Origin: an uncultured virus (IMG/VR IMGVR_UViG_3300027754_005401)
Lineage: Duplodnaviria; Heunggongvirae; Uroviricota; Caudoviricetes
Strand: one strand, 5' to 3'
Length of the DNA stretch: 59,495 nucleotides
IMG/VR virus record: IMGVR_UViG_3300027754_005401
A program made the position numbers and the translations under genes. Shown piece after piece: positions 31,665-57,019 of the stretch. Every line of letters starts with the position of its first letter. Positions within the stretch are counted from its first letter, which is position 1. The notes beneath the pieces are model-generated. The model did no database searches, was not told the DNA's origin, and worked only from the letters and a program-made list of their open reading frames with translations.

Positions 31665-33734
<2,070 letters not shown>

Positions 33735-33772
33735 TTTTAATAATTTATTTTATTAGAATTAAAACAATATAT

Positions 33773-33797
33773 AAGCTACATGTAAAACATGTAGCTT
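33773..33797 (+). terminator. probable intrinsic terminator
   Basis: aagctacatgt-aaa-acatgtagctt, 11-bp stem after the fibre gene; weak T tail. Confidence 0.65.
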
Positions 33798-33881
33798 GTA
33801 TATTTTAATTACATTGAATTTTACACAAGAAAGAAAGTAAATCAATGAAAATAACAAATAAAAATGCAATCAAAGATGCTA

Positions 33882-34622: not shown

Positions 34623-34661
34623 ATACTACGATATAAAAAATTCTCTTGAAAGGTATTTAAA

Positions 34662-35279: not shown

Positions 35280-35282
35280 TTT

Positions 35283-36062: not shown

Positions 36063-37023
36063 GAAAATATTAGTTTTAGGAGCAGGAGGCTTCATTGGAT
36101 CTCATTTGGTAAAAAAACTAAAAATGAAAGACTGTTATATTACAGGTGTTGATATAAAATATCCTGAATATTCAAATACCTTAGCAGATAACTTTATAAT
36201 CGGGGATTTAAAACAGCAACTTTTTTGCGATGAAATATTTAACAGTAAATTTGATGAAGTATACCAACTCGCAGCTGATATGGGAGGTGCTGGTTATATT
36301 TTTACTGGCGACAATGATGCTAATATTATGACTAACTCAGCATTAATTAATTTAAATGTTTTAGAAAGGTGTGTTAAGACACAAGTTGGAAAAGTTTTCT
36401 ACTCTTCTTCTGCGTGTATTTACCCTGCTTATAATCAATTAGATCCAAAAAATCCAAATTGCTCAGAATATTCAGCTTATCCAGCTTCTCCAGATAGTGA
36501 ATATGGATGGGAAAAGCTTTTTAGCGAAAGACTTTATCTTTCTTATCATAAAAATTATAAATTAAATATTAGAATTGCTAGATTTCATAATATTTTTGGC
36601 CCTGAAGGAAGTTGGAATAACGGAAAAGAAAAAGCTCCAGCAGCATTGTGCAGAAAAGTAGCAGAATCAAATTCTGTTATTGATGTTTGGGGAGATGGAA
36701 AACAAACTCGTTCTTTTCTTTATATTGATGAGTGTTTAGAAGGTATAGAAAAGCTAATCGAATCAAACTTTATTGGGCCTGTTAATATTGGATCAGATGA
36801 AATTATTTCAATAAATGAATTAACTAATATGATCATTGCAATATCAGGGAAAAAATTAACTATAAACAACATAAAAGGGCCAACTGGAGTAAGAGGAAGG
36901 AATTCTGATAATAAAATGTTATTTGATAATATTGGATGGAAGCCAAGCTGTAAGTTAAAAGATGGAATAGAAAAAACATTTTATTGGATTAATGAGCAAT
37001 TTAAAAAATTACTTTATATATAG
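36049..37023 (+). CDS. GDP-mannose 3,5-epimerase-like NAD-dependent epimerase
   Basis: GAGGFIG, QLAADMGGAGYI, SSACIYP, YGWEK, RFHNIFGP, EKAPAALCRK, GVRGRNSDN. Confidence 0.9.
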   Translation: MSFVKKILVLGAGGFIGSHLVKKLKMKDCYITGVDIKYPEYSNTLADNFIIGDLKQQLFCDEIFNSKFDEVYQLAADMGGAGYIFTGDNDANIMTNSALINLNVLERCVKTQVGKVFYSSSACIYPAYNQLDPKNPNCSEYSAYPASPDSEYGWEKLFSERLYLSYHKNYKLNIRIARFHNIFGPEGSWNNGKEKAPAALCRKVAESNSVIDVWGDGKQTRSFLYIDECLEGIEKLIESNFIGPVNIGSDEIISINELTNMIIAISGKKLTINNIKGPTGVRGRNSDNKMLFDNIGWKPSCKLKDGIEKTFYWINEQFKKLLYI

Positions 37024-37863: not shown

Positions 37864-39273
37864 ATGAACTTTAAAAATTGGATTATAAACGAGGAAATTT
37901 ACCAAAATAATACAGCAACAATATTTCACAGAACTCCAACTATTTCAGCAATTTTTTCACTTTTGACTACTAAATTCAATATTGGAAAAAGAATTAATTA
38001 CGGTAGTGGTTTGTATACCACTACTACCATTGATGGTCAATTCGTTGAAGACATGAAGGAATTTGGAGCTTTCGTAACCAAATGGAAAGTACAAGATCTT
38101 GATAAATATATTGTTTTAGGAAAACAACATGCCATTAAAATACATGGAGATCAATATATTATAAGTTCTCAATTAGAAAAGTTAAACGCTTTAGAAGAAT
38201 TCAAAGAAAAAAATAAAGAAGAGTGGGAAATTAAACTAAAACAATGGGATAAATATCAAGAAGTCAACAGTCCACAGATAATAGATTTTTTAAATGACAA
38301 TGAAAAATGGCTAGATAAAAGTAAATCTTTTAAAGGTTGTATTTATCGTGACAATAGATATGGATATTGTTTGTTAAAATTTAATCCTATCGAAGACGGA
38401 ACAATAACATTTTTAGCATATGCAGAAGCTGAAGCTGACGATATACAAAAAATGGAAAAATTAAAAGATAAAAATAGTGAACATTGGATAAAGTCAACCG
38501 AAAAAGCAAGCATCAAAAGTATTTATAGAAGTCCACAAGATCAAAAAACTAAATATGGTATTGAAATTCCAGAACTAAAAATCACACCTACAGGTGGCGA
38601 AACTCTAACTGTTAAAGAATCACCTTTCGTTTATCACCTTTTGATGACACCCCTAAAAACGGGTGTAAAATGGGATTTCAATACCCAAAAAGCCATAGGT
38701 TCTAAGGATTCAGACAAATCAGTCATAGATCCAGTCTTTATATTTTCTTATGAAAATAAAACTTGGAACTTAAAATTTAAAAAAGAAAATTTTAATAGTG
38801 GTGGTTACCTTGGAAATTCAATGTATGAAATCCCAAATATTGACGGAACACCTGTAAAAGAAATTAACAAAATAAAAAATAATAGTAAACTTTGTTTTAA
38901 CGGTAAAAAAGTAAGCAATGTTTGTTTTCAATTTAATTTTGAAGAAAAAAATAAAATTGTTAAAGGTGAATCAGATAAATTGAAACTAATATCATCAGAA
39001 AATAACAAAAAATATATTGTTGACAAAAGAGATGAGTTTGGACAAAGAAATTTAACTGATCTACTTCCAATGTCAGTAAAGTTTTACGCCAGTAGTCAAT
39101 TTAGATTAGAAAAAATTCAAACAAATTGGATCATAACACAAATTGTTGGAGCAAAAAACACAACAAACTTAAATGGAATTCCATTGGAACCATCGGAGAT
39201 AAAACCTTTAAAAGATGGAGATATAATTTCTATCGGAAAAACACAGCAAGGAAAATTGCAAGTTAAACTTTAA
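37864..39273 (+). CDS. CTS-tagged protein with ART-like N-terminus and C-terminal FHA domain
   Basis: MNFKNWIINEE; IFHRT...YGSGLYTT; KNTTNLNG.PL....PLKDGDIISIG. Confidence 0.7.
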   Translation: MNFKNWIINEEIYQNNTATIFHRTPTISAIFSLLTTKFNIGKRINYGSGLYTTTTIDGQFVEDMKEFGAFVTKWKVQDLDKYIVLGKQHAIKIHGDQYIISSQLEKLNALEEFKEKNKEEWEIKLKQWDKYQEVNSPQIIDFLNDNEKWLDKSKSFKGCIYRDNRYGYCLLKFNPIEDGTITFLAYAEAEADDIQKMEKLKDKNSEHWIKSTEKASIKSIYRSPQDQKTKYGIEIPELKITPTGGETLTVKESPFVYHLLMTPLKTGVKWDFNTQKAIGSKDSDKSVIDPVFIFSYENKTWNLKFKKENFNSGGYLGNSMYEIPNIDGTPVKEINKIKNNSKLCFNGKKVSNVCFQFNFEEKNKIVKGESDKLKLISSENNKKYIVDKRDEFGQRNLTDLLPMSVKFYASSQFRLEKIQTNWIITQIVGAKNTTNLNGIPLEPSEIKPLKDGDIISIGKTQQGKLQVKL

Positions 39274-39291
39274 AAAACAAAGAATCGAATT

Positions 39292-40104
39292 ATGAACTTT
39301 AAAAACTGGCTACTAAATGAATCTAAAGCTATAACTCTACCACCAGAAGTGTTGAGCTTTATCGATCAAATAACACCAGAAATTACAAAGATAATGATCG
39401 ATAGTAAAAAAAATCCTGACGGGCTGTTGTACCAATGTTCCGAAATTAAAAAATTAAATAAAAAATGGCATATTAAAGTTCCGATTAAATCAAAAAGTTA
39501 TGATAGATTTGATTACGAAATAACTGGTGTTAAAGATAGAAAGACTGAAAAATATTTTCCTATAACTGTAGTTCTTGATTGCAATTATAAAACAAATTTT
39601 GGTCAATTTTCCGACAACGAAGTTAAAGTAAATACATTCTGGTGGGGAAAACTACAAGATGGATCTACTAAACTTGAAATATCTATAGAATCTGTAAAAG
39701 GTTTGCTTATACATGAGTTCATTCATGCTGTTGATATAAAAAATCACGATGAAAAAGTTATAAAAGCAATATCGAAAAAACATTCCGATGGCGATTACAG
39801 CGACCCTAATGAAATAGATGCATATAGTGGAACTATTACACAAAGAATTATAAGTTACGCAAATGAAAGTAACGATCACCAAAAAACACATAAAGATTTA
39901 GAAAAAATACTAGATTTCATTAAAAGCACCGAAAAATATAGAAATACAAACATAGTTTTATACCCTCTAATTCCTAAAGATGTTGTAAAAATATATAAAT
40001 ATATGGATATAGGAGATGAAACAATAAAAAGAAGAATGCTTTCTAGAATTTATGACGCAGTAATGCAAGCAAAAACTATCATACAACAAAAACAAAGAAT
40101 CTAA
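39292..40104 (+). CDS. CTS-tagged putative zinc metallopeptidase
   Basis: MNFKNWLLNE; LIHEFIHAVD...PNEIDAY. Confidence 0.8.
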   Translation: MNFKNWLLNESKAITLPPEVLSFIDQITPEITKIMIDSKKNPDGLLYQCSEIKKLNKKWHIKVPIKSKSYDRFDYEITGVKDRKTEKYFPITVVLDCNYKTNFGQFSDNEVKVNTFWWGKLQDGSTKLEISIESVKGLLIHEFIHAVDIKNHDEKVIKAISKKHSDGDYSDPNEIDAYSGTITQRIISYANESNDHQKTHKDLEKILDFIKSTEKYRNTNIVLYPLIPKDVVKIYKYMDIGDETIKRRMLSRIYDAVMQAKTIIQQKQRI

Positions 40105-40126
40105 TAAATAATTAATTATGGATTTT

Positions 40127-40155
40127 AAAAAGCGTAACTATCGCATAAATAAACT
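40127..40155 (+). promoter_or_regulatory. truncated cassette repeat with late promoter
   Basis: aaaaagcgtaactatcgCATAAATAaact before ATG. Confidence 0.7.
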
Positions 40156-40716
40156 ATGAAAACATTTAAACAATTCTTAAAAGAAAAACCTTATAACGAA
40201 CAATTAGATATGCCACCACCACAAAAAATTATATTAGGTGTACCTGCCATGAGGCTTGATATAACTGATCTTAATAAGTTTAAAGGCATAGACGATATTA
40301 TAGCAAATTCAAAAGATGCAGAAGATATATTAATATCTTTAAAATTTCGAACAAGTAAAGATAAATTATCCGAAATAAACCCAGAAACTTTAGCAAATGC
40401 GTTAGTCAAAACAAAAGCTGTTCCTGATAAGGTTAAAGAAATACTTGAATACTTTGGCGAACACCATAATGTTATGTCAAAGTATGAAATTAAAAATATG
40501 TTGAATATTACATTTGGAAATTTAGATATTCCACAAGATGTTAAAAGTTATTTAACTACTAAACTAGAAGACTTTAGACAAAAACATCAACAGACAAGAG
40601 ATATATTTTATAAGAAAAATTATCCTGATTTGTTGAAAGGAACAAATATTGATACAAGTTATTATGACTCTGAAACAGGCAAAGGTAAATTTGGTGGGCC
40701 TGATTATCTAAGATAA
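40156..40716 (+). CDS. CTS-tagged hypothetical protein
   Basis: MKTFKQFLKEKPYNEQLDMPPP. Confidence 0.8.
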   Translation: MKTFKQFLKEKPYNEQLDMPPPQKIILGVPAMRLDITDLNKFKGIDDIIANSKDAEDILISLKFRTSKDKLSEINPETLANALVKTKAVPDKVKEILEYFGEHHNVMSKYEIKNMLNITFGNLDIPQDVKSYLTTKLEDFRQKHQQTRDIFYKKNYPDLLKGTNIDTSYYDSETGKGKFGGPDYLR

Positions 40717-40740
40717 AAATTAAATTGTAATAAGCATAAA

Positions 40741-40770
40741 TAATTCATACTATTATTGCATAAATAAACT
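40741..40770 (+). promoter_or_regulatory. degenerate cassette repeat with late promoter
   Basis: taattcatactattattgCATAAATAaact. Confidence 0.75.
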
Positions 40771-41304
40771 ATGAAAACATTTATTGAATATATTAACGAA
40801 ATAGAAAATAATAAAAGCGTAACTAATTCGTCATATGATTACAATCATGAATTTAAAAAATGGACTGTATTCCTCGAAAAAAAAGATGCTTGCTATTATA
40901 AAGTCAAAAGAAGATACCATGTGTGGCCTTCGGCCTACGGTTCTGGGGCCCTGGTTAAATGTAGAAAAAAAGGTGCAAAAAATTGGGGCAATTCTAAAAA
41001 AAACGAAACTACTGAATTAAATGAAGATATATTTAAAGCAGAAAAAGAAAAAGGATTACGAGGCTGGTTTGATAGAAATAAAGGAAAAGGATGGATAGAC
41101 TGCAAAGCTAGCAAAAAAGGAAAACTCGTTTCTTGTGGCCGTAAAAAAGCTGGCAAAGGTGCTAAAAGAAAATATCCAGCCTGTAGACCAACTTTATCAG
41201 CATGTAATAAAACTGGGGTTAAAAGGAAAATAAGCAAAAAAGCTATTTCTTGGAAAAAGAAAATACTTGAAATGATAACATCTAAGATAGAAACAATAGA
41301 ATAA
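40771..41304 (+). CDS. CTS-tagged basic Cys-containing protein (WPSAY family)
   Basis: MKTFIEYINE; KKDACYYKVK...WPSAYGSGALVKCRK; GLRGWF...CGR...YPACRP. Confidence 0.8.
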   Translation: MKTFIEYINEIENNKSVTNSSYDYNHEFKKWTVFLEKKDACYYKVKRRYHVWPSAYGSGALVKCRKKGAKNWGNSKKNETTELNEDIFKAEKEKGLRGWFDRNKGKGWIDCKASKKGKLVSCGRKKAGKGAKRKYPACRPTLSACNKTGVKRKISKKAISWKKKILEMITSKIETIE

Positions 41305-41342
41305 AACAGAACTAATTCATCCTACTATTGCATAAATACATT
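41302..41342 (+). promoter_or_regulatory. cassette repeat with late promoter
   Basis: taaaacagaactaattcatcctactattgCATAAATAcatt. Confidence 0.85.
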
Positions 41343-43583
41343 ATGAAATTTAAAAATTGGCTACTAATAAACGAAGGCATGATAAAAGTATCAGCAAAAA
41401 TTTATACACAAGTAATAACTGACTACTTTGAAAAATTAAAAGAATATAAAGCTTTTGGAGAAATTAGAGCTTCAACAAAAAGTTATCCACTTATAAATGA
41501 AAAAGAAAATCTTTTCAACGATACATCATTTTCTTTTTTAATTGGTTATTTTAAAAAAGTAACATTAAATGTAAAATATAGAAAATTTGAAAAAGCCGAA
41601 CAAAAGTCTTACCCAGCATATTACGAAGCTCAAGACTTTCCCAGTATGAAAATTTTTAAAGGAATGGAATTTAAAGGAACAATTGTTTTGGATTTAAAGA
41701 TACTTGATGTAAAACATAAATATGATTATATTACATTAATTCAACACGAAATAACCCATTTTATTCAAGACTTAGAAAAAATTCACGCTTACTTGAAAAG
41801 CTTAGAAAGACAATTAATTTACTTATACAAAAAACAAAAAGAAGAAAAAGTGAGCTATAGATACGGAAACGAAATAGAAAGAATTCACAAAGCTTTGAAT
41901 TTTGGGAATTTTCCAGCAGAAGATCCATTAGAAGAAAAAGATATGCCTCTTGCTGGAATTTCTCCATTACAAATCACAAAAAACACCATGAAAGATAAAA
42001 AAATTAATTTTAATGGAGTTTTCAAAGTAAAAGATGATTTAGAAACTCAAAAATTAAAAACAATAGATCACGAAAAAAGACCAATTGAATTTCAAACTAA
42101 TCTTATTTCAGTTGTTGGAGATTTTCAAAGAGATTATTTTGAAAAAATTCTAGATGGAAAATTAAAAAAAGAAAATGGATACGAAATTCCAGATGATTTA
42201 TATTCTTTTGATTCATATGGTTCTAATCTAGGTTGGAAAAATAAAATAATGAATTACAATAAAATACTTGAATTTTTTAACAATAGAAATAATAAAAAAT
42301 TATTCTTGAAATCAATCTTAAGCATTTTTGAAAAGACTGATTTTAAAATTTTCCATATGGATGTATGGAAAAGATATCATATTTTAACTTCGATTAAAGC
42401 ACACACTGATAATACTGATACTAATGAGTTGTACAAATGGTACTTAAGTAATATTTATAAAGAATTTGTAAATAAAGACATTGATATGGATTACTTGAAA
42501 TTGTTACATAAACAAGACAGATTATCTGAAGTCCCACTCGAACAAAAAAAAGACCTTTTAATAGATACACTTGAAAGTCTAAAAGGAAAAAAAGAACAAA
42601 AATATTATGCTCGTGATATAAAGTTTTTTAATAATCACGATCCTGATTTGCGTAATTTTAAAATTGATAACAAAGCTGGTGATCAATATTGGCATGCATG
42701 GAACATCTTAAAAGCATTTTATGGTAATCAAAAAAAATACGATAAAGAAATAAAAAATGGTAGAATAATGGATTATGAAAAACTTAACGAGATATTCAAA
42801 ATTATAAAAAGAGATAAAGTAGCTTTTAGAAAAGAATATGCTGGACAAAAAATTGTTTTGAATGAAATATATGAAAATTATGAAAAATTTATCAATGCTT
42901 TCTTAGATCGAATTGTTAAGTCTTATGAAATACATTACCAAAATCATAAAAATGATTATTACGAAAATGATAAAATGGAAGACATTTTACCTAAACCACC
43001 AACAAAAAACGATTTCATAGAAGACTTTAATATAGAAATTAAAAAAGAAGATGTTAAACCACCAGTAAAAGTAGATAAAATCGTAAATACTAAAAGTAAA
43101 GATCTTTTGGAAACTATGGATGTTTATACATTTATTTCACTTGAATATAAAGGTGAAAAAGATGAAGAAGATGATAATAAATGGAATATAATCCATGATA
43201 TAGATGATCGTAAAGAAAAAATTTCTAATGTTTCTTATAGTTATGCAAACAAGGTTGGAAGCTTATTGGAAACTTTTCTTGATCACAAAGATTCTGACCA
43301 TAATATAGATAGATATAAATTAAAGCAAAAACCTGTCAAAAGAAACATTGGTATATATGAAATCTATCACCTTTTTCAATTTTTGGAACGAATACTTAAT
43401 ATAGACGCAAATCAAAAAGAACCATATGATGTAGTAATTGCAAATAAAAAAATAATTGCTAGATTCTTAGCAGAAGATATCGCATGGTCATATAAAAAAC
43501 ATTATGAAGAAAATAATATAGATGAAAAACCACCTACAGCAGAAAAAATATTTTTCGATAATTATGTTACATCTAGTTCCTAA
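41343..43583 (+). CDS. CTS-tagged large HExxH metallopeptidase-like protein
   Basis: True start MKFKNWLLINE; IQHEITHFIQ; DHEKRPIEFQTNL; paralogue of 45203. Confidence 0.8.
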   Translation: MKFKNWLLINEGMIKVSAKIYTQVITDYFEKLKEYKAFGEIRASTKSYPLINEKENLFNDTSFSFLIGYFKKVTLNVKYRKFEKAEQKSYPAYYEAQDFPSMKIFKGMEFKGTIVLDLKILDVKHKYDYITLIQHEITHFIQDLEKIHAYLKSLERQLIYLYKKQKEEKVSYRYGNEIERIHKALNFGNFPAEDPLEEKDMPLAGISPLQITKNTMKDKKINFNGVFKVKDDLETQKLKTIDHEKRPIEFQTNLISVVGDFQRDYFEKILDGKLKKENGYEIPDDLYSFDSYGSNLGWKNKIMNYNKILEFFNNRNNKKLFLKSILSIFEKTDFKIFHMDVWKRYHILTSIKAHTDNTDTNELYKWYLSNIYKEFVNKDIDMDYLKLLHKQDRLSEVPLEQKKDLLIDTLESLKGKKEQKYYARDIKFFNNHDPDLRNFKIDNKAGDQYWHAWNILKAFYGNQKKYDKEIKNGRIMDYEKLNEIFKIIKRDKVAFRKEYAGQKIVLNEIYENYEKFINAFLDRIVKSYEIHYQNHKNDYYENDKMEDILPKPPTKNDFIEDFNIEIKKEDVKPPVKVDKIVNTKSKDLLETMDVYTFISLEYKGEKDEEDDNKWNIIHDIDDRKEKISNVSYSYANKVGSLLETFLDHKDSDHNIDRYKLKQKPVKRNIGIYEIYHLFQFLERILNIDANQKEPYDVVIANKKIIARFLAEDIAWSYKKHYEENNIDEKPPTAEKIFFDNYVTSSS

Positions 43584-43623
43584 AAAACTAAACTAATTCG
43601 TACTACCATTGCATAAATACACT
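43581..43623 (+). promoter_or_regulatory. cassette repeat with late promoter
   Basis: taaaaaactaaactaattcgtactaccattgCATAAATAcact. Confidence 0.88.
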
Positions 43624-45162
43624 ATGAATTTTAAAAATTGGTTAATATCTGAAGAACAACTTTTTAATGAGGACTTCAAAACTCAAAGAGAAAAATTCAT
43701 CCAACAAGGCATAGGAAAAGACATCGTTGACGGTTACCTCAAGGATTTTAAAACCATCAAAGAAAAAAAATATAAACAAATCAATGATCCAATACACGGA
43801 TTAGAACATATCAAAGACAGAATCAATATAGACGCTTATAAAACATTCCATGAACTAGCATCGCTAGTAGATTATGTCAAAGGACAAACTGATGTTTCTG
43901 GTAAAACCAATTATAAAAATATCGAAGTAGATGCAACACCAATTCATGAAGATAACGACTTGATAATTTATTACGCAGATACTCCTCAAGCATGCGTTAC
44001 TTACAAAGGTGATGTTCCATATTCTTGGTGCATTGCCCGACCCGATGCAAGTAATTTATTTTATTTTTATAGATTAGGTAAACTAGAACCATCATTCTAT
44101 TTTGTAAAAAACAAGGAAAGAACTAACAAAGAACTTGAAACATTTAAAGGAAAAACATTCACTGATAAATATCACTTCTTTGTAATTCAAGTAATAAAAA
44201 ATGCTAACCCTGAAGATGAAGATAATCAACAATATATTGTAACTTCCGCAGAAAATGATGGTGATGAAAAAATGTCATGGACTGATATATTAAAATTAGA
44301 ACCAAAATTAATTAATAAACAAAACATATTTGCTAGTAAACTTTTAGCACCTAAAGAAAAAGAATTATACAAAAGATTTAGCAATGGTATTTCTGATAAA
44401 GAATTTGAAAATTTACCTTTTGATGAAAAAGATATGTATTTGAGTGTTTATGTTAGAGAAAACCGACCACTTACCGACAACCAATTTAAATTTTTACCAT
44501 CTGATTTAAAAAATAAGTATATTGGATTTGGAACAGGATTAAGTTATGAACAATTTAAAATGATTGATTCTGATTCTAAATTATATAAAAGATATGAAGA
44601 TGTTACAAGAATTAAAATAAAAAAAACAATTGGAACTGATAAATTTAATCTTATGCCAACTGAAATTATTGTTATGAAAAAAATAGCAAGTGAAATTGAT
44701 TTTGATAAACTTTCTGGATTTAGCCTTGCCCCGTTATTAGGCAGAGAAAGTAAAAACCAAAAAGACGAAATGGCAGAATTGATTATAAAATATAAATCAG
44801 AACTTTCTAATAAGGAAATTGATGATTTGATTCGTTATGCAAAATACAAAGACAAAATAACAGAACTATTAAAAGATAAAATAAAAGATAAAATAAACAA
44901 CTTTTCTAATAATGATGTTGCTAATTTGCTTCTTAGAGCAGACTACAACTACAGATTTTATATAGTAAAACTATTGGGAACAGCTAATATAAGTAAGCTT
45001 GATGGTCTTAATTTATATAGTATATTTTTAAATTCTAATAAAGATGATGATGATCTAATTCAAATTGCAATTATCATAGACAGATATCACACAAATAAAA
45101 ACCTTGTAAAAAGATTTACAAGCAAATTCGAACATTTTCTCGACAAAAAACCTCCTGAATAA
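43624..45162 (+). CDS. CTS-tagged protein (YSWC.AR domain plus helical repeats), paralogue of 50275
   Basis: MNFKNWLISEE; ACVTYKG.VPYSWC.AR...FYFVKN. Confidence 0.85.
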   Translation: MNFKNWLISEEQLFNEDFKTQREKFIQQGIGKDIVDGYLKDFKTIKEKKYKQINDPIHGLEHIKDRINIDAYKTFHELASLVDYVKGQTDVSGKTNYKNIEVDATPIHEDNDLIIYYADTPQACVTYKGDVPYSWCIARPDASNLFYFYRLGKLEPSFYFVKNKERTNKELETFKGKTFTDKYHFFVIQVIKNANPEDEDNQQYIVTSAENDGDEKMSWTDILKLEPKLINKQNIFASKLLAPKEKELYKRFSNGISDKEFENLPFDEKDMYLSVYVRENRPLTDNQFKFLPSDLKNKYIGFGTGLSYEQFKMIDSDSKLYKRYEDVTRIKIKKTIGTDKFNLMPTEIIVMKKIASEIDFDKLSGFSLAPLLGRESKNQKDEMAELIIKYKSELSNKEIDDLIRYAKYKDKITELLKDKIKDKINNFSNNDVANLLLRADYNYRFYIVKLLGTANISKLDGLNLYSIFLNSNKDDDDLIQIAIIIDRYHTNKNLVKRFTSKFEHFLDKKPPE

Positions 45163-45202
45163 AAAACGGAACTAATTCGTACTACCATTGCATAAATACA
45201 CT
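45160..45202 (+). promoter_or_regulatory. cassette repeat with late promoter
   Basis: taaaaaacggaactaattcgtactaccattgCATAAATAcact. Confidence 0.9.
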
Positions 45203-46189
45203 ATGAATTTTAAAAATTGGCTAATAAAAGAAGGTGCAATTCAAGTACCATTTAAAGTTTTTGAACCAATTGTTACTGATTATTTCAATTACTTGAAAAA
45301 TAATATTGAAAAACCACAAAGAAAAACCAAAACATATAGCTTGGATTTCTCAAATACAAAATATGAATTTTTAAAACATCTTAACCCAAAATTAAAAGTA
45401 AATTATAAAGGCTTTAAAGATAATACCGTTGGACATTATTTTGGAGAAAAAGCAGATGTTGCAATACACGATGACCAAACATATGAAGTAACAGGAGTTA
45501 TAGAACTAAAATATGATTTGTTTAAAAATTTTTATTATTCTGCAATTGTTAATCCTGCAATTTATGGACTTGTAGAACATGAATTTACTCATTTCTTACA
45601 ACATTTACTTGATATTAATGAATACCTTAAAAACAATGAAAGCATACCAGATGACATGGATCTTATTCCAATTAAAGCACATGGTGGCAGTGTGCCAAAA
45701 AGATTAACAAAATATCTGATGAAAAAACAAGATGTTGATTTTTATGGTTATAATTTAAAAACAAACAAACCGATAGATCACGAAAAAAGACCAATAGAAT
45801 TTCAAACTAATCTTATTTCTGTTTTAGACAAAATACAATCAAGCTTTGTAAATGCATTTTTAAGTGGAAATTTAAACCCAAGTTATTTTTCTTATCCTTA
45901 TGACATTGTAAAAACTATCAAAACTAAAGAAGATTTTGAAAAAAATAAAAATTTAATAATTGGATTTTTAAACAACCCAATAGAAAAAAAGAAATTCATT
46001 CTTTCATCTAAAAAAGGACAGTTTAGAATTGATAGCGATGACTTAACAAATGTTAAAAAATATAACACAGAATTGTATAATTGGTACTTAAATGAAATTT
46101 ATAAAAACTTTGTAACAAAAGATATCGAAGAAAATAAACTAAATTACTTAGCGGATGTGTATTTCTTTTCCAAAAAATCTTATAAATAA
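45203..46189 (+). CDS. CTS-tagged HExxH metallopeptidase-like protein
   Basis: MNFKNWLIKE; VEHEFTHFLQH; DHEKRPIEFQTNL. Confidence 0.82.
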   Translation: MNFKNWLIKEGAIQVPFKVFEPIVTDYFNYLKNNIEKPQRKTKTYSLDFSNTKYEFLKHLNPKLKVNYKGFKDNTVGHYFGEKADVAIHDDQTYEVTGVIELKYDLFKNFYYSAIVNPAIYGLVEHEFTHFLQHLLDINEYLKNNESIPDDMDLIPIKAHGGSVPKRLTKYLMKKQDVDFYGYNLKTNKPIDHEKRPIEFQTNLISVLDKIQSSFVNAFLSGNLNPSYFSYPYDIVKTIKTKEDFEKNKNLIIGFLNNPIEKKKFILSSKKGQFRIDSDDLTNVKKYNTELYNWYLNEIYKNFVTKDIEENKLNYLADVYFFSKKSYK

Positions 46190-46255
46190 AAAACGGAACT
46201 AATTCGCACTACTATTGCATAAATACAAAGAAAGCGGAACTAATTCGCACTACTA
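46187..46255 (+). promoter_or_regulatory. one full plus one partial cassette repeat
   Basis: taaaaaacggaactaattcgcactactattgCATAAATAca, then cggaactaattcgcactacta again at 46235. Confidence 0.88.
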
Positions 46256-46272
46256 CCAAAAAATAGGAAATT

Positions 46273-46986
46273 ATGAATTTTAAAATATGGTTGGAAAATT
46301 ATAAAGATATTAATAATAAAGAAGAATATGAAAAAATAAACAAACTCAACATGACAGCTAGTTTACCATTTGAACCTAAAAGTATTCCACAAGCGATAAG
46401 CGATATTGGCAAACTAACTAGAGGATTTCATTTAAATACCATCGTTGGTCGTATGATGACTCCATGGATTAATTCACTAAACAGAGCACCTATAGATTAT
46501 GAATTATTAGAAACCGACCCAGAAAAAGCAACAAAATGGTCAGTTAGTAGCACCGATAGAAAAGCAAATAATAATTATAAAGCTGCATATGACTTGTTTA
46601 AACAGGAAATAGCCAACGCAGTAGATGCTTTACCAGTTAAACTTGGAATTAATATTATGACAGGCAAACCAGAAGATGTTCTTTTGAAAACTAAAGAATT
46701 TTTATCAAATTATACTCCCGAAGAAAAAGACCTTGTAAAATCACTCGACAACGCTTGGAATTTATATACAAAAGTATTTGGAAACGATAAAAAAAGTAAT
46801 TTTTCTCAAATTCAAAACTTTGCAAACTTCTTTCAACTCGTCAAAGAAGAATTTATGAAAATTGGCGAACTACTCAATAACATGCAAGATGACGATGGAT
46901 TAAATGTAATAGAAAATGATTTTTTAAAAGCTCTTAATAAAGAACAAAGAAAATATGAAAAAATGATGGGCGTTTCATTTGAATAA
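46273..46986 (+). CDS. CTS-tagged hypothetical protein
   Basis: MNFKIWLEN; AGGA RBS. Confidence 0.8.
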   Translation: MNFKIWLENYKDINNKEEYEKINKLNMTASLPFEPKSIPQAISDIGKLTRGFHLNTIVGRMMTPWINSLNRAPIDYELLETDPEKATKWSVSSTDRKANNNYKAAYDLFKQEIANAVDALPVKLGINIMTGKPEDVLLKTKEFLSNYTPEEKDLVKSLDNAWNLYTKVFGNDKKSNFSQIQNFANFFQLVKEEFMKIGELLNNMQDDDGLNVIENDFLKALNKEQRKYEKMMGVSFE

Positions 46987-46993
46987 TAGATTT

Positions 46994-47036
46994 TAAAAAA
47001 CGGAACTAATTCGCCCTACCATTGCATAAATACACT
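46994..47036 (+). promoter_or_regulatory. cassette repeat with late promoter
   Basis: taaaaaacggaactaattcgccctaccattgCATAAATAcact. Confidence 0.9.
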
Positions 47037-47186
47037 ATGGATACTTTTGAAAATACATCTCCTCCAGAAGAACAAATTCAAAAAGTTTTAGCCAAATGCT
47101 GGAACTGCGAAAATTATGTTTATTGCACTGGAACAATTCTTAATTATTGCGATATGTGCCTAAATGAAATGACAAAGACACAATGA
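47037..47186 (+). CDS. 49-aa zinc-finger microprotein (CxxC...CxxC)
   Basis: Hand-translated MDTFENTSPPEEQIQKVLAKCWNCENYVYCTGTILNYCDMCLNEMTKTQ; directly behind the repeat; ATGA overlap with the next gene. Confidence 0.7.
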   Translation: MDTFENTSPPEEQIQKVLAKCWNCENYVYCTGTILNYCDMCLNEMTKTQ

Positions 47187-47650
47187 ACTTTAAAAATTGG
47201 CTATTAAACGAAGCAAGACAAGGTTTTCTACGATACCTTAAAGAAAAATTACCGCTTGTTCCTGAATATGTCTTGTTTGATTTATTTTATAAAAATATAA
47301 AAAATTCTAAACCTGAAGAAATAGAAGAACTTATACAAATTTATAAAGATTTTAAATGGGAATTTAAAACAAATTTTCACATAAGCTACGAAATATTTGA
47401 TGATACAACTATTCAAAAACTTAAAATTAGAAAAGGTGGAACAGTAAATCCATACGGTGTTCCTAACGATAAACAAAGACATGATAAACAAAAAGAACTA
47501 ATTACAAAAGCAATTCCTAAAGAACCAATCATATTAATTAAAAATGGTAATAAATATGAATTGCTGGAAGGATGGCATAGAACCATTCAATTATTTGAAA
47601 AATATCCAAAGGGATTTGTTTACCCACAAGTTTATATAGGTATACCATGA
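47183..47650 (+). CDS. CTS-tagged ParB/Srx-like domain protein
   Basis: MNFKNWLLNE; EPIILIK....YELLEGWHR. Confidence 0.75.
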   Translation: MNFKNWLLNEARQGFLRYLKEKLPLVPEYVLFDLFYKNIKNSKPEEIEELIQIYKDFKWEFKTNFHISYEIFDDTTIQKLKIRKGGTVNPYGVPNDKQRHDKQKELITKAIPKEPIILIKNGNKYELLEGWHRTIQLFEKYPKGFVYPQVYIGIP

Positions 47651-48189
47651 ACTTTAAAAACTGGCTACTACTCTCTGAAGAACAAATTTTAAATGAAAGA
47701 TTTAGAGAAATAGCTGCTGGTAATGAAAATTTCAAATTTTTATTTGATCAGGAACATAAATTTTTAGCCTATGATCGTAGAACAAACTTAAATGTAGGTT
47801 GGCTCATAGTAGGTTATAAAAATGAAGATGGATCAAGATCTGTTCACAATGTAGCTGTAGATCCAGTCTTTAGAAGACAAGGAATAGCCACATCTCTATA
47901 TAAAGCAGCAGAACAAGAATTCGGCAAACTTACACCCAGCACCGCCCAATCAGATAACGCATTTGACTTCTGGAAAACTTATCGACCAGAAGCTGTTAAA
48001 AACAAAACAGACCTAAGACCATTTAAAGATCAGTTAATAGGCAAGAAATTCGACCATCCAAGATTAGGACCAATGGAAATAATAGAAGTAAATATACATA
48101 CAGCTACAGGACTTATTAAAAATAGAGAACGGCATACCGAAATTTTTCTAAATAAAAATGACTTAATAAAGTTTAATCTATTACCATAA
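47647..48189 (+). CDS. CTS-tagged GNAT acetyltransferase
   Basis: VAVDPVFRRQGIATSLY...QSDNAFDFW. Confidence 0.88.
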   Translation: MNFKNWLLLSEEQILNERFREIAAGNENFKFLFDQEHKFLAYDRRTNLNVGWLIVGYKNEDGSRSVHNVAVDPVFRRQGIATSLYKAAEQEFGKLTPSTAQSDNAFDFWKTYRPEAVKNKTDLRPFKDQLIGKKFDHPRLGPMEIIEVNIHTATGLIKNRERHTEIFLNKNDLIKFNLLP

Positions 48190-48196
48190 ATACACT

Positions 48197-49147
48197 ATGA
48201 ACTTTAAAAACTGGCTATTACTAAATGAGGTTTCTGATTTTGAAAAAAATCAGATGGGAACAAAAAAACTAACTTATAATTATGTTTCCCAAAAAGAATG
48301 GCCAAAATTGCGTGAATACTTGGTTCAACAATCTTTGACACGAAATCCTAATTTAGACACAGAGTTAACAGCTTATACACCAGGCGAAACCTTGGAACTG
48401 CTTGATCATCCTAAAATTAAAGCATGGTTTAAAAAAATGAAAAATTTTAAAATACCAGATAAATATGGTCTTGTTATACTAGTAGCTTGTGCAGCTTCTA
48501 AACCTTGGGGTCAAGGTTGTAAAGGTGAATTTTATCCATCTTACAACAAAATTAGAACAGAAGAAGAACTTAAAACAAGAAAAAATTCTAAACCTAGTTA
48601 CTTCGTTACTATATCAGAACCTCTTGGAGTTGTTCCTCAAGATTTCTGGGATAACTTCCCACAATATGATAATCCAGGTCTATTTAAGGACAACACACAA
48701 CAAAGTATGACAACTAAAGATTGGATACAAAAATCACCTTTTAACCAAAAAAGAGAAATGCCTTTTGACGATGAAGCATTTAATAAATGTATTGAAATAT
48801 TAGGTAATGTTATTGGTACCTTTATCAAAAATAACCCAAATCATGAATATATATCTATTGTTGAACAAGCAGATAAAACAAAGATTTCAACACATAGCAA
48901 AATGTTAGATATTGCACAGGCTTATGCTAAAAAATCAATATTAAGAAATGAAAAAAAACCAAGTAAAGGTAGAGATAAATATGACGGTGTTGCTCATGTT
49001 AAAAAAATAATTCAACAAAGTCCAACAAAGTATACTAAAGAAGATGAAGAATATCTAAGAAAAAATTTAACAGGCAATGTATCATTAGATAAAGATGTCA
49101 TAAAAAATTTAAAAGAAATACAAAAAGATAGAAATTTTAAACTATGA
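48197..49147 (+). CDS. CTS-tagged DUF5591-like (ArcS/TGT-associated) protein
   Basis: ILVACAASKPW...TISEPLGVVP.....PQYDNPG; CATAAATAcact upstream. Confidence 0.65.
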   Translation: MNFKNWLLLNEVSDFEKNQMGTKKLTYNYVSQKEWPKLREYLVQQSLTRNPNLDTELTAYTPGETLELLDHPKIKAWFKKMKNFKIPDKYGLVILVACAASKPWGQGCKGEFYPSYNKIRTEEELKTRKNSKPSYFVTISEPLGVVPQDFWDNFPQYDNPGLFKDNTQQSMTTKDWIQKSPFNQKREMPFDDEAFNKCIEILGNVIGTFIKNNPNHEYISIVEQADKTKISTHSKMLDIAQAYAKKSILRNEKKPSKGRDKYDGVAHVKKIIQQSPTKYTKEDEEYLRKNLTGNVSLDKDVIKNLKEIQKDRNFKL

Positions 49148-49731
49148 ACTTTAAAAACTGGCTACTATTAACTGAAAACATAATCGTAAAAAAAGATGAT
49201 ATTATGTTTGTGAATTTTGTGGAAGATCAACAATTAAGACTTGAATTAGAAAATCAAGATTATGATGTTTATGTCCGTGGAAGTTTTTCAGACGGGCCAT
49301 TACTTGAAATAGACAAAGTAGGTTCAATTAGATTGTTAATGGCTGGTCCGATTAGCAGACCAACATATTATACTGTACATTCAATTAATGGAAAATCAAA
49401 AGGTGCAGGAACAATATTGTACTTTGCTGCACTTGAATTCGTGGTTAAATATGGAATTAGATCTGCAAATGGATTGCTTGCATCAGATACAACAATATCA
49501 TCAGATGCAGTTAGAGCAAGAAAAAGACTTCAAGATAATTATGGCGAATATATCTCTATACATGAACATCCAGATATAAAAAATGCCAAAACTCACAACT
49601 GGACTGATGAAAGATTAAAAGCTACTCCAGAGGAAGCGTCAATGTGGAAATTAAAAACTCTTGCACATCCATTTAATTTTAATTTTATATCTGCAAATCC
49701 ACAAATAAAAACACCAAAATTCAATCCCTAA
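49144..49731 (+). CDS. CTS-tagged GNAT-like protein
   Basis: KGAGTILYFAALE...LASD..ISSDA. Confidence 0.6.
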   Translation: MNFKNWLLLTENIIVKKDDIMFVNFVEDQQLRLELENQDYDVYVRGSFSDGPLLEIDKVGSIRLLMAGPISRPTYYTVHSINGKSKGAGTILYFAALEFVVKYGIRSANGLLASDTTISSDAVRARKRLQDNYGEYISIHEHPDIKNAKTHNWTDERLKATPEEASMWKLKTLAHPFNFNFISANPQIKTPKFNP

Positions 49732-49746
49732 TCAATAAATACCTTT

Positions 49747-50271
49747 ATGAACTTTAAACTATGGCTGTTATCTGAAATGCCCGTTATTTCTCTGCAAGGT
49801 AAAACCGTACTCGCAGATGATAAACCTCTCAAAGAAGTCGATGTTGATAATGTCAAAAACAATATCGTCAGTTTCCAACAAGCAACTAAGAGTATTTTTC
49901 ATGAAGCAGGAGCAATTTGGGTCTATTTTCTTGACTCAGAAGAATCTGCTAAAAAAATGATAGCACAACAGATACCTTTCCTAACGGTTCCCACAATTGC
50001 TGATGGCGATGATCCAATAACTGAGGTGTGGAAAAAACGATATGCCAAAAAAGGAACCGAACACATTTTGGGACTATTAGAAGGCAATGCCAATGAAAAA
50101 GACATTTATATAAACATGATGACTGTTAGACCTAAATATAAAAGAAACACCATCAATACAAAAATGATACAATTTTTGCAATCAGAATTTCCAAATGCAA
50201 AAATATCTTTTAGTTCACCTACACCAGAAGGCAAAAAATTTATAAATAAATACACAAAAATTGATAAATAA
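49747..50271 (+). CDS. CTS-tagged GNAT-like protein
   Basis: MNFKLWLLSE; IYINMMTVRPKYKRNTINTKMI...PTPEGKKF. Confidence 0.65.
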   Translation: MNFKLWLLSEMPVISLQGKTVLADDKPLKEVDVDNVKNNIVSFQQATKSIFHEAGAIWVYFLDSEESAKKMIAQQIPFLTVPTIADGDDPITEVWKKRYAKKGTEHILGLLEGNANEKDIYINMMTVRPKYKRNTINTKMIQFLQSEFPNAKISFSSPTPEGKKFINKYTKIDK

Positions 50272-50274
50272 ATC

Positions 50275-52071
50275 ATGAACTTTAAAAACTGGCTACTACT
50301 CTCTGAAGAACAACTTTTTAATGAAGATTTTAAAACTCAAAGAGAAAAATTCATCCAACAAGGCATAGAACCAGATGCCGTTGACTATTACCTCAATACC
50401 TTTAAAACTATTAAAGATAAAAAATACAAACAAATTAATGACCCAATACAAGGTCTTGAACATATCAAAGATAAAACCAATATAGATGCTTTTAAAATAT
50501 GGAAAGAACTAGAAGACTTCGTTGATTATGTTAAAAGCCAAGTAGATGTTTCTGGTAAAACTAGTTACAAGAATATCAAAGTAGACGCAAAACCAATCTA
50601 TGAAGATAACGACCTGATAATTTATTACGCAGATACTCCTCAAGCATGTGTTACTTACAAAGGCAATGTTCCATATTCTTGGTGTGTTGCCAGAACCGAT
50701 GCAAGTAATATGTTTTACCACTATAGATTTGGAACACATAAACCATCATTCTATTTTGTAAAAAATAAGGAACGAACCAATACAGAACTTGAAACATTTA
50801 AAGGAGGAACATTTACTGATAAATATCACTTCTTCGTAATCCAAGTAATAAAATATGCTAAACCTGAAAATAAAGATGATCAACAATACATTGTAACTTC
50901 TGCACAAAATATTGGTGATCAACAAATGTCATGGAATGATATATTAAAACTAGAACCTAAATTAACTAATAAAGAAAATATATTTATCAGCAAGCCTCTT
51001 GGAATTAAAGAAGAAGAACTATACAAAAAATTCAAAAATGGTATTTCTGATAAAGAATTTGAAAACTTACCTTTTGATGAAAAAGATATGTACTTGAATA
51101 TTTATGTAAGACAAGACCGACCACTAACCGACAACCAATTTAAATTTTTACCAACTGATTTAAAAAATAAGTATATTGGCTTTGGAGTTGGTTTGTCTGA
51201 TGAACAAGTTGAAATGATTGATTCTAAATTATACAAAAGATATGAAGATGTCACAAAAACTAAAATAGAAAAAACTATTGGAACTGAAGAATTTAAACTT
51301 ACACCAAGCGAAGTTAATATATTATTAAAATATATAAATGAATTTGATTTCAACAAACTTTCTTATGATAATGTTGAGTATTTGCTTAAATACGCAACTG
51401 ATGACAACATGGCAAAATTAATTATACAAAAGAAACAAAACCTTTATACTTTTGATGTTTTTAATTTGCTTGATTATGCAACCAATAAAGAAGAAATAGC
51501 AGAACTATTACAAAAAGATAACATTAGTGAACTTAGACACAATGATATTGTTACATTGCTTAATAATGCAACCGATAAAGACAAAATGGCAGAACTACTT
51601 ATAAAATATAAAACAAATTTTCGTGATAATATTTATTATTTGCTTTTTTTTGCAACCGATGATAACAAAGACAAAATAGCAGAACTAATTATCGAAAAAG
51701 AAAAAGAACTTTCTAGCTTGCATCTTCTTCCTGATATTGGTATCGAAGCGTTACTTTATTATTCAAATGACACAGAAAAAATAGCAAACTTGCTAGGAAC
51801 AGATAACATAAATAGAATTGAAAATAGAAATATTTTCAAGTTGATTACAAAATTAGAAGGCAGACCTTTAAAACTAGAAATAATTGCTAAAATATTAGGA
51901 GAAACAAATATAAGTAAACTTACTTATGATTCTATTAAGTTAATGCTTAGCAAATCACATCCTAAAAAAGAAAATACCGCAAAAATACTAAATCAATATT
52001 ATGCAAATAAAACACCACAAATAAAAAGATTAATTAATAAACATTTAAAAACAAAAACCCTTCCTGAATAA
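50275..52071 (+). CDS. CTS-tagged protein, paralogue of 43624, with longer helical-repeat C-terminus
   Basis: About 330 N-terminal residues closely match 43624; repeats of L...V..LL..AT.K..AELL. Confidence 0.85.
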   Translation: MNFKNWLLLSEEQLFNEDFKTQREKFIQQGIEPDAVDYYLNTFKTIKDKKYKQINDPIQGLEHIKDKTNIDAFKIWKELEDFVDYVKSQVDVSGKTSYKNIKVDAKPIYEDNDLIIYYADTPQACVTYKGNVPYSWCVARTDASNMFYHYRFGTHKPSFYFVKNKERTNTELETFKGGTFTDKYHFFVIQVIKYAKPENKDDQQYIVTSAQNIGDQQMSWNDILKLEPKLTNKENIFISKPLGIKEEELYKKFKNGISDKEFENLPFDEKDMYLNIYVRQDRPLTDNQFKFLPTDLKNKYIGFGVGLSDEQVEMIDSKLYKRYEDVTKTKIEKTIGTEEFKLTPSEVNILLKYINEFDFNKLSYDNVEYLLKYATDDNMAKLIIQKKQNLYTFDVFNLLDYATNKEEIAELLQKDNISELRHNDIVTLLNNATDKDKMAELLIKYKTNFRDNIYYLLFFATDDNKDKIAELIIEKEKELSSLHLLPDIGIEALLYYSNDTEKIANLLGTDNINRIENRNIFKLITKLEGRPLKLEIIAKILGETNISKLTYDSIKLMLSKSHPKKENTAKILNQYYANKTPQIKRLINKHLKTKTLPE

Positions 52072-52144: not shown

Positions 52145-52365
52145 TTTACTTAGTATCCAATTTTGCAACAACACAGTATACGCCAAAAATATACCTCGTC
52201 AAACAAACAAAGGGAGTGATAATGGTGTAGAGCATATAAGGAGTACCCAACTCTCTAATGTTTTTTATTTTTAATTTATTAATTTTTAATTTTGCAACAA
52301 AGTTATTTTTAAAATATTAATATATTAATACCATCTTTGTATTTGATAGTACCAAGTCTAAGGTT

Positions 52366-52465
52366 GCCTAGCCTAGCCTAGCCTGACCTGACCTGACCTG
52401 ACCTGACCTGACCTGACCTGACCTAGCCTAGCCTAGTCTGGCCTGACCTAGTCTGGCCTGACCTT
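52366..52465. repeat. pentamer microsatellite (RCCTR), 20 units
   Basis: gccta x3, gcctg, acctg x7, then mixed accta/gccta/gtctg/gcctg. Confidence 0.95.
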
Positions 52466-52466
52466 A

Positions 52467-52613
52467 CTAATCTTTTAAAGTAGATTAAGAATTAATTAAT
52501 ACCTGCCTGATTATTTAAAGTAGATTAAGAATTAATAATTAATCTTTTAAAGTAGATTAAGTAATTAATTAATACCTGCCTGATTATTTAAAGTAGATTA
52601 AGAATTAATTAAT
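52467..52613 (+). repeat. AAAGTAGATTAAG motif array 1 (4 copies)
   Basis: Copies at 52477, 52517, 52549, 52590. Confidence 0.95.
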
Positions 52614-52643
52614 ACTGCTCCTGCTCCTGCTCCTGTAAACAAA

Positions 52644-52674
52644 GCAAGGCCAAGGTTATTAGCCTTGGCCTTGC
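52644..52674 (-). terminator. intrinsic terminator
   Basis: gcaaggccaagg/ccttggccttgc 12-bp stem, then TTTGTTT on the minus strand; downstream of 52704-53042. Confidence 0.88.
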
Positions 52675-52703
52675 ATGATTGATTGATTGAACCTTACTGA
52701 ACC

Positions 52704-53042
52704 TTACCTAAGCTTATGTTCGTTGTTAGACCTCTCCCATTCAAGGCGTTCCATTACTCTATCCTTCAACGCCTGACCTATTAGAGCAACTGCATCATGC
52801 AACTCCATGATCTCTTCCGTAGAAGGGTCTTCGGACACTTCACTCCACATGGCAACCTTAACCATGTCTATGATGCCACCATTGATAGGATCTACCGAGT
52901 ATCCATCGATAGATTCAATTGATTCAATATTCCAGTCATGGATTACACCTACAGGTTCGCTATGGAAGTTACCTGTTCGCAGGTTGCTGTTTAATATTGT
53001 TTCGCACTCACGATTAATCATGGCCACTAATTTCCTAAGCAT
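52704..53042 (-). CDS. hypothetical protein
   Basis: 112 aa, GGGAG RBS, own promoter and terminator. Confidence 0.8.
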   Translation of the reverse strand: MLRKLVAMINRECETILNSNLRTGNFHSEPVGVIHDWNIESIESIDGYSVDPINGGIIDMVKVAMWSEVSEDPSTEEIMELHDAVALIGQALKDRVMERLEWERSNNEHKLR

Positions 53043-53101
53043 TTCTAAACTCCCTGAAAAAATAGAACCAACTTGGCAAACAAAATATCTGCCTAATTAA
53101 T

Positions 53102-53130
53102 ATATCGGTTTATCATCCTTAGAAATTTAA
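53102..53130 (-). promoter_or_regulatory. sigma28/FliA-like promoter
   Basis: Minus strand TAAA-N16-ACCGATAT. Confidence 0.6.
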
Positions 53131-53141
53131 TTAATGTATGA

Positions 53142-53280
53142 CTAATCTTTTTAAAGTAGATTAAGTAATTATTTGGTTACTTGTTTTTTAAAGTAGAATG
53201 AGAATTATTTTGGTTAACTAATCTTTTAAAGTAGATTAGTAATTAATAATTAATGACTAATCTTTTAAAGTAGAATGAAT
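53142..53280 (+). repeat. AAAGTAGAWT motif array 2 (4 copies, 37-39 bp period)
   Basis: Copies at 53153, 53190, 53228, 53267. Confidence 0.93.
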
Positions 53281-53480
53281 ATTAATGTTTAAATAATTGT
53301 TTAAATAATTATTTTGCTTAGATTGTTTACTTAAAAGGTAATGATTAAAACGCATAATAACTTTGACAACTGAACATAATAACATCATTGGTTTAGATTG
53401 CATTAGATCGCATTAGAAGCTATTTGTTTGCAAGTAAGGCAAAGGTATTACTGGCAACAAGATCACGCAATTTAAAAGAA

Positions 53481-55618: not shown

Positions 55619-55653
55619 TCTTATAATCCTTTTTCTAATAAAACTTGAGAAGT

Positions 55654-55680
55654 TTGTTCCTACCACAATGGTAGGAACAA
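55654..55680. other. intergenic 12-bp stem-loop between AAA+ and VWA genes
   Basis: ttgttcctacca-caa-tggtaggaacaa; no strong U tract. Confidence 0.75.
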
Positions 55681-55692
55681 TTAAGACTAACT

Positions 55693-56955: not shown

Positions 56956-57019
56956 GATTAATTCCTCTTAGCTTTATTCGGTAAGCTTTCCGTTTGATGG
57001 TTTATAATCCATCGAAGTA

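Follow-up and report, generated by a model that had tools for sequence, protein, structure and literature searches.

Repeated promoter-tag units as likely short-homology joints between putative internal-protein genes of an apparently giant, T4-like phage

In the 59,495-nucleotide (nt) stretch of DNA from the uncultured virus IMGVR_UViG_3300027754_005401 analysed here, hereafter the window, a promoter-like repeat stands between largely unrelated genes and runs into codons for a common N-terminal tag. The locus raises the question of whether this repeat is merely a promoter copied along with its genes, or a joint at which genes are exchanged, and by what kind of recombination. An initial annotation, made from the letters alone, had proposed that the repeats act as recombination handles. 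This idea stands: whole genes have been gained, lost and moved among the relatives, the breakpoints lie at the repeats, and an invariant order with breakpoints elsewhere was looked for in the relatives and not found. We consider it likely that the promoter-tag units are short-homology joints through which general recombination shuffles genes for probable internal proteins. The shuffling at the units is well supported by comparison of related sequences; the recombination pathway, the promoter activity, the packaging and the injection are inferred.

The comparison set comprises 15 related array contigs obtained by pattern scans, that is, 16 array sequences with the window; all relatives are metagenomic contigs. 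Across 59 copies in these 16 sequences, the unit consists of an A-tract, a box, a spacer, CAT(A/T)ATA, 4 nt, the ATG and the tag. The box, (A/G)CGGAA-N4-TT(C/T)G, lies at -37 to -24 from the ATG and is near-palindromic, with its centre 30 nt before the ATG; its arms are kept across lineages and its central 4 nt vary. A spacer of 11 variable nt (7+4 nt) leads to CAT(A/T)ATA at -12 to -5. The hexamer is present in 44 of the 59 copies; its distance from the box is 13 nt in 42 of these and 12 nt in the other 2, in a count that could register only distances of 10-15 nt. The copied unit is 37-45 nt long.

Taking the 46-nt copy at 45160 as the reference and at most 10 mismatches as the threshold, we find six places in the window, all on the plus strand and none on the minus strand, compared with none in any of 10 second-order Markov simulations of the window. 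The repeat therefore recurs as annotated. The mismatches number 7 at 41300, 2 at 43581, 0 at 45160, 7 at 46187, 2 at 46994 and 9 at 40728, and six of the seven in the 46187 copy fall after the promoter. The finer description in the initial annotation holds in part. The unit begins with the previous stop codon in four of the five full copies, not at 46994; it continues into ATGAAYTTTAAAAAYTGG exactly in two of the five (43624 and 45203) and with one mismatch at 41343, and fails to do so at 46187, which runs into a tandem copy, and at 46994, which runs into an untagged open reading frame (ORF) of 49 amino acids (aa). A homology of 60-65 base pairs (bp) per junction applies among three junctions and not to the rest. 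Perfect junction matches extend to at most 51 nt (43624/45203), followed by 40 nt for 47647/50275, where the tag alone matches, and by 21-26 nt for the remaining pairs listed. The partial tandem copy (46228-46272, box only, then a Shine-Dalgarno-like AGGA) and the decayed copies at 40126-40158, with its internal deletion, and 40728 are present as described; the one proposed at 48185 has 19 mismatches and retains the promoter end and tag only, with no box. Features missed before are a fossil copy within the ORF at 40771 (40812-40863), a promoter-leader relative at 24659, and junctions with the tag alone, with which the array spans 39292..52071. The units are listed below, where G001 is a related 120-kb record and X12 a sequencing run with an independent contig of 7795 nt.

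40126..40158, plus strand: decayed unit with an internally deleted box, promoter and ATG; one joint of the X12 gene swap lies here
40728..40773, plus strand: decayed unit (9/46 mismatches)
40812..40863, plus strand: fossil of a unit, with box, decayed promoter and second tag, read in frame as part of the F1 gene
41300..41360, plus strand: full unit and tag codons; left end of a 5.7-kb block missing from G001
43581..43641, plus strand: full unit and tag codons; 51 nt identical to the 45160 unit
45160..45220, plus strand: full unit and tag codons; reference copy
46187..46272, plus strand: full unit without ATG, then a box-only tandem copy with a Shine-Dalgarno-like leader
46994..47039, plus strand: full unit; right end of the block missing from G001
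48182..48214, plus strand: promoter end and tag, no box

The relative at 24659 (window 24659-24716, 15 kb left of the array) has the promoter and a longer Shine-Dalgarno leader without a box, and is of the same kind as the unit copies of G001.

The tag occupies about 10 codons and reads M-x-F-K-x-W-L-x-x-E or M-K-T-F-x-x-F-L-x-E. Its residue pattern is that of the starts of T4 IpI-III (T4 record AF158101): a conserved leader on otherwise unrelated proteins, with aromatics three apart and a protease site near residue 10. PMC9026906 places the functional positions of capsid targeting at 4 and 7 and processing at 8 and 10. We describe the tag, from its residues, as resembling a capsid-targeting sequence. 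The window has 22 tagged and 43 untagged ORFs. [LIF]-x-E within residues 6-13 occurs in 15 of the 22 and 3 of the 43, respectively, although the tag pattern itself favours a hydrophobic residue there. TA(A/T)ATA lies 7-14 nt before 13/22 tagged versus 7/43 untagged ORFs, and in G001 before 9/16 versus 17/130. Tagged genes are also scattered outside the array, and they are rarer in G001 than untagged ones (9/22 versus 30/40 window ORFs matched, paralogue matches included).

The evidence for exchange is most direct in single events. Across common genes, G001 and the window share 87-97% DNA identity. G001 lacks window 41340-46997, exactly between two units, with four genes missing and the 40771 gene joined directly to the gene behind the 46994 unit. 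It also lacks window 47696-50250, exactly between the tag starts of 47647 and 50275 (40 nt common), with four more genes missing. In X12, the 40156 and 40771 genes are swapped, and the joints 40142>40758, 41306>40151 and 40733>41330 are all at units; at the first of them, 26 letters fit both sides, covering promoter plus tag. The X12 run contains tag joints as well (48223>50302 and 49711>47644). The F6b gene of the window (45203) is found in G006 at 95-97% identity between differently worded units, and the homology ends inside the units. Three different cargos are each joined in frame, at an internal tag, to one and the same N-terminal domain.

These events belong to a broader pattern of gain, loss and reordering of whole genes among the 15 contigs. 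Across a unit, 26 distinct pairs of upstream and downstream genes occur in 15 sequences; five different genes occur after F1 and five before the F2 domain, and several junctions recur in 2 to 4 separate contigs. Among the 16 array sequences, 99 pairwise alignment ends lie away from contig ends: 56 in a unit of both partners, 16 in a unit of one, 15 in a tag of both, 3 in a tag of one and 9 elsewhere. Hence 90 of the 99 are within unit or tag windows of one partner or both, and these windows make up 13.4% of the DNA. After de-duplication and with wider windows, 59 of 70 synteny breaks are in repeat or tag windows covering 15.8% of the DNA.

Several points weigh against this interpretation. The window order is conserved relative to C256 (3.55 kb, 94%) and L017 (2.0 kb, 98%), and 11 of the 70 break positions lie elsewhere, including a truncation of F1 in L025 and changes within repeat-rich genes. 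Nearly every gene boundary of the array has a unit or tag, so that the DNA-share null is lenient, because selection for intact genes would by itself leave the surviving breaks between genes. The pairwise counts do not represent independent events, the wider windows were chosen after the first count, and an alignment end bounds a crossover without fixing its position. In addition, tblastn found no UvsX-like or gp55-like genes in the six closer sequences; such genes occur in distant records only (G004, G008). The form of the swap, the F6b transfer and the fusions is sharper evidence than the break counts.

The same events bear on the alternative that the units are merely promoters copied with duplicated genes, gain and loss taking place by illegitimate or microhomology events of which only the between-gene breaks survive. 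The unit or tag at almost all boundaries would be expected from such a history, and in L025 a deletion joins the F1 interior to the next unit over few common letters rather than unit to unit. In the distant L246-L248, the junctions carry another repeat, of which the upstream part resembles the 3' end of a gene, as a passenger would, and spacer differences between near-identical strains (3/111 nt) are not above the 2-3% background. This account is nevertheless hard to reconcile with deletions in G001 that leave exactly one unit or one tag start, with a swap whose three joints are at units, one of them fitting 26 letters on both sides, with the stop of F6b homology inside differently worded units of G006, and with in-frame fusions that change the cargo at tag codons. 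We regard it as unlikely.

As for the kind of recombination, the crossover intervals are box-only (L020 versus L011 and L019), promoter-plus-tag (40142>40758) or tag-only (G001 47647/50275; the in-frame fusions). The box-only and tag-only intervals do not overlap, and therefore no single recombination site is required; likewise, with exchanges at places that have just the tag or just the box in common, there is no single att site. The box is dispensable for crossover. General short-homology recombination is the simplest reading of the mechanism, and PMC2839356 gives less than 50 bp as the homology required by T4 recombination. The locus would then be a variable set of probable head-packaged (internal) proteins of a giant T4-like phage, in which unrelated genes share 20-50 nt of unit and tag as homology. 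T4-type recombination-dependent replication, or strand annealing, would cross over between copies within one genome or between co-infecting relatives. Whole genes would be deleted, inserted, duplicated, reordered and sometimes fused, and most recombinants would retain promoter and tag and so remain usable.

It is conceivable, at rather long odds, that the box binds a dimeric phage protein that both activates a late-type promoter and draws recombination. The array would in that case be a library of injected effectors that works without an integrase and is guided by a protein: whole genes would be shuffled at the promoters, and domains swapped in frame at the capsid-targeting codons. The kept arms, varying centre and 13-nt hexamer distance fit a protein site, but also recent common descent.

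Integrons are arrays of single-gene units that combine an IntI tyrosine integrase, an attI/attC site and one upstream promoter. The initial annotation had called the locus an integron-like payload library with no integrase visible in the window. The window indeed encodes no recombinase among its 64 ORFs, but the integron label is not supported: the promoter-like unit is repeated with each cassette, and the crossovers share no site. In such a system, a dedicated recombinase or helper would recognise the CGGAA-N4-TTYG box and drive cassette excision and insertion. The near-palindromic box with kept arms and a centre varying between lineages, its confinement to array and lineage, and the box-only copies that persist before F3 in four sequences would suit this. 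Moreover, only about 124 kb of a genome of about 500 kb (from the 14% completeness of the record) is covered, so that a distant, unlinked recombinase may lie elsewhere in the genome. Against this, exchanges take place at tag-only and promoter-plus-tag joints without the box, and neither a paired inverted-arm att structure nor a single upstream promoter is seen. No fixed attI/attC-like crossover site was found, the intervals being disjoint and window 37000-59495 having no Rfam match. Tyrosine integrase (PF00589) and resolvase (PF00239) were found in none of nine related records, all incomplete, the one at 91% completeness being distant and without the box. Single-gene units gained, lost and reordered are the likeness to integrons, a comparison also made in PMC2839356; overall, a site-specific system of this kind seems to us very improbable.

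Mis-assembly of mixed strains at short repeats is hardly credible as the source of the alternative orders: all relatives are metagenomic and contigs of runs X4 and X5 break at 43620 and 45199, in the 51-nt identical stretch, but the different orders have their own substitutions (mostly 85-97% identity) and unique genes, several junctions are each present in 2 to 4 independent assemblies, no X12 joint shares more than 26 letters and each has at least 255 letters on either side, and a contig of X4, possibly a related sample, matches window 39000-43620 without a difference.

Returning to the units as joints for general recombination, we may ask what the box and the hexamer do. CAT(A/T)ATA fits a T4 late-type -10 element with leaderless transcripts that would start at or near the ATG; this late-type reading is drawn from T4 promoter geometry. 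A TATAAATA-like -10 hexamer is enriched before tagged ORFs, with a gp55-like gene in the distant records only and not in the closer fragments, in which no sigma factor with region 4 was found either. Most probably, the box is an upstream promoter or regulator element specific to this lineage, or else came along as a passenger with the founder promoter; an ECF-type -35 (GGAAC) may be another candidate. The box is restricted to the array and the lineage of the source phage in scans of G001 and more distant records. G001 has six box matches, five of them inside the array, and G006 and two L016 copies have a differently worded unit with the same arms. In G003, G004, G007, G008 and G009, the box has only two single one-mismatch matches, versus three in the control, which rules it out as a general promoter element of the wider clade.

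Other readings of the unit were rejected. A sigma70 promoter (-35, N17, -10) fails because in none of the 60 listed sites do the hexamers coincide with the box and CATAAATA; 63 sites were found in all, against 79.9 expected from shuffled sequence. The 46 unique unit copies fold weakly (medians of -2.3 and -4.1 kcal/mol on the two strands; a 4-5 bp hairpin at most), and the four terminator-like sites of the region are away from the units, which excludes a terminator; the weak folding and the lack of an Rfam match likewise exclude a structured RNA. Compared with the consensus sequences, sigma54 (GG-N10-GC) misfits in spacing and a LexA box in its half-sites. Gene conversion among copies was discarded for want of excess spacer differences between near-identical strains, though G006 words the unit in its own way. 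The earlier statement that the units supply late expression and head targeting automatically is too strong, as 15 of the 59 listed copies have no hexamer and the tag is missing from some of the cargos that follow a repeat (47037; an astacin-like gene in L016 and L026).

The source phage appears, from its genes, to be a giant T4-like freshwater phage. The overlapping record G005 of the same phage, identical to window 1-7507, encodes a T4-type portal, a gp21-type head maturation protease (PF03420), a major capsid protein (PF07068) and a terminase, a set that points to head assembly of the T4 type; in G001 there are baseplate wedge genes. From the estimated completeness of fragments (14% at 72 kb, 24% at 120 kb), the genome would measure about 500 kb. 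The sequencing runs containing at least half of the stretch come from freshwater metagenomes. No additional lineages with the array emerged from a wider pattern scan, and ten loci from a looser scan, with single matches each, were set aside as probable chance. By motif count, F1 relatives past L047 (77 loci) have no such array.

PMC2839356, PMC4122927, PMC3012670, PMC9026906 and PMC12373910 describe T-even internal-protein (IP) loci as unrelated genes with a common N-terminal leader and a promoter-containing flanking repeat, whose number and identity vary between relatives, with recombination in the flanks as the proposed cause. The capsid-targeting leader is the only part common to the IPs, which block host restriction (PMC3012670, PMC9026906, PMC12373910). 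The window locus is similar in having leader and promoter repeat on unrelated genes, number, order and identity of genes that vary between relatives, the tag pattern of T4 IpI-III and a gp21-type protease; the sequence comparison with the T4 IPs covered the tag. However, the T4 flanks have early promoters, AT-rich stem-loops and a Shine-Dalgarno leader, whereas the window unit has a late-type -10 element 4 nt before the ATG and a weak 4-5 bp hairpin. The window cargos reach 746 aa, compared with 95-193 aa for the T4 IPs, and the tagged genes of this phage also lie outside the array.

A second relative is the family of PeSLs, repeated promoter-terminator units that, in PMC2839356 and PMC4122927, shuffle ORFans and form mini-circles; their authors made the integron comparison and noted analogous elements at T-even IP loci. 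The related PmSLs have an upstream regulator box (Mot box) and a -10 element (PMC4122927). Like the PeSL and PmSL units of the T4-type phages RB49, phi1, PST and nt-1, the window units are regulatory, have an AT-rich upstream part and lie between variable ORFans, with insertions, deletions and exchanges at units between close relatives. Half copies with the upstream element only and the lack of a known dedicated recombinase are common to PeSLs and the array, and the order of upstream box and -10 element is that of PmSLs. Unlike a PeSL, the window unit has neither a sigma70 -35/-10 pair nor a stem-loop of terminator strength, and its coding tag belongs to the common homology and is a crossover site on its own. 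Mini-circles have been shown for PeSLs, whereas the array is known from contigs alone. The difference from integrons lies in the absence of a visible integrase and of an attI/attC-like site, in the promoter-like unit of each gene and in the several non-overlapping crossover parts. Because the early-promoter and stem-loop features fail, the array is a variant of the IP and PeSL loci rather than a member. Our literature searches, whose coverage left out most subscription papers, found no late-promoter-plus-tag cassette array described in huge phages.

A second, unrelated repeat family heads many small minus-strand ORFans in G006 (L158:11000-20000 and L159:1-6000). It combines long palindromes with a sigma70-like promoter and a conserved leader that ends in a Shine-Dalgarno sequence, and looks like classical PeSL-type early cassettes adjoining the late array.

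The genes of the array are as follows.

39292..40104, plus strand: tagged cargo, 270 aa, HExxH (putatively metallopeptidase-like); tag-only junction
40156..40716, plus strand: tagged cargo, 186 aa, without family; in X12 placed after, not before, the 40771 gene
40771..41304, plus strand: tagged cargo F1, 177 aa, PHROG 727 (function not known)
41343..43583, plus strand: tagged cargo F6a, 746 aa, HExxH; paralogue of 45203
43624..45162, plus strand: tagged cargo F0a, 512 aa; 80% DNA identity over 1.28 kb to 50275
45203..46189, plus strand: tagged cargo F6b, 328 aa, HExxH; 95-97% identical copy in G006 between other neighbours
46273..46986, plus strand: tagged cargo F3, 237 aa; confident, mostly helical predicted model
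47037..47186, plus strand: untagged 49-aa ORF with CxxC motifs, behind a full unit
47183..47650, plus strand: tagged cargo, 155 aa; in G001 fused in frame behind another domain
47647..48189, plus strand: tagged GNAT acetyltransferase; 40 nt of its start identical to the 50275 start (tag-only crossover site)
48197..52071, plus strand: four more tagged genes (316, 195, 174 and 598 aa) with tag-only junctions that also mark breakpoints

The array thus contains two GNAT-type acetyltransferases (47647 and 49747) and three HExxH proteins (39292, 41343 and 45203); the 48197 protein has a weak DUF5591 match, and the other array cargos have no Pfam family. Of 24 cargos from relatives, one is astacin-like and untagged and four have weak matches only. 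The ESM Atlas matches of the 45203 and 43624 proteins are limited to unnamed viral clusters. F3 is predicted with a pLDDT of 87.7, has 36 homologues with a conserved LTRGFHLN motif, and gave no Foldseek match to solved structures at E <= 0.001; it is a candidate for a new enzyme fold. In the distant, high-GC phages L246, L247 and L248, F3 and other tagged genes are neighbours of the major capsid gene and follow another junction repeat; the upstream part of this repeat resembles the end of a small coding sequence of zinc-finger-like type. F1 itself opens with a captured junction unit and its second tag, which take up the first 25-30 codons, and alignments with more distant relatives of F1 begin only at about residue 23. 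The C-terminal stretch of the 48197 protein (window 49030-49147) recurs within the otherwise unrelated F59 cargo of L016, a further sign of module exchange. Judged from their tags, the cargo proteins are probably carried in the head and injected. PMC7824862 proposes acetyltransferases and metallopeptidases as host-takeover factors of jumbo phages, and we infer an anti-host (effector) role of the cargo.

Outside the array, window 52350-53300 and 57050-58200 contain non-coding arrays of 5-, 10-, 19- and 37-38-nt repeats common to both places, at the switch from plus- to minus-strand genes; they are possibly origin-like or early regulatory. Window 53528-59495 has two adjacent sets of genes for a vWA protein and a MoxR-type AAA ATPase, and two such pairs are present in G001. 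Large blocks of glycosyl-, sulfo- and methyltransferase and sugar-nucleotide genes occupy 5044-19258 and 33864-37023; nothing in G001 matches block 31818-37023, which includes a collagen-repeat gene. A poly(A) polymerase / CCA-adding enzyme head domain at 3745-5031 is conserved in G001.

The shuffling principle has been published since 1994/2010 for T4-type phages, in PeSLs and T-even IP loci, and the late-type promoter and large cargos are the difference here. The locus would extend the T-even internal-protein idea, in which a promoter repeat with a leader is a shuffling joint, to an uncultured giant phage, and it adds direct comparative evidence of a kind that is thin for T4: exact deletions, a neighbour swap, transfer of a gene between lineages with differently worded units, and domain fusions at the tag. 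The array itself may be read as a list of candidate injected anti-host proteins, mostly without family, one of them with a confident model and no solved match.

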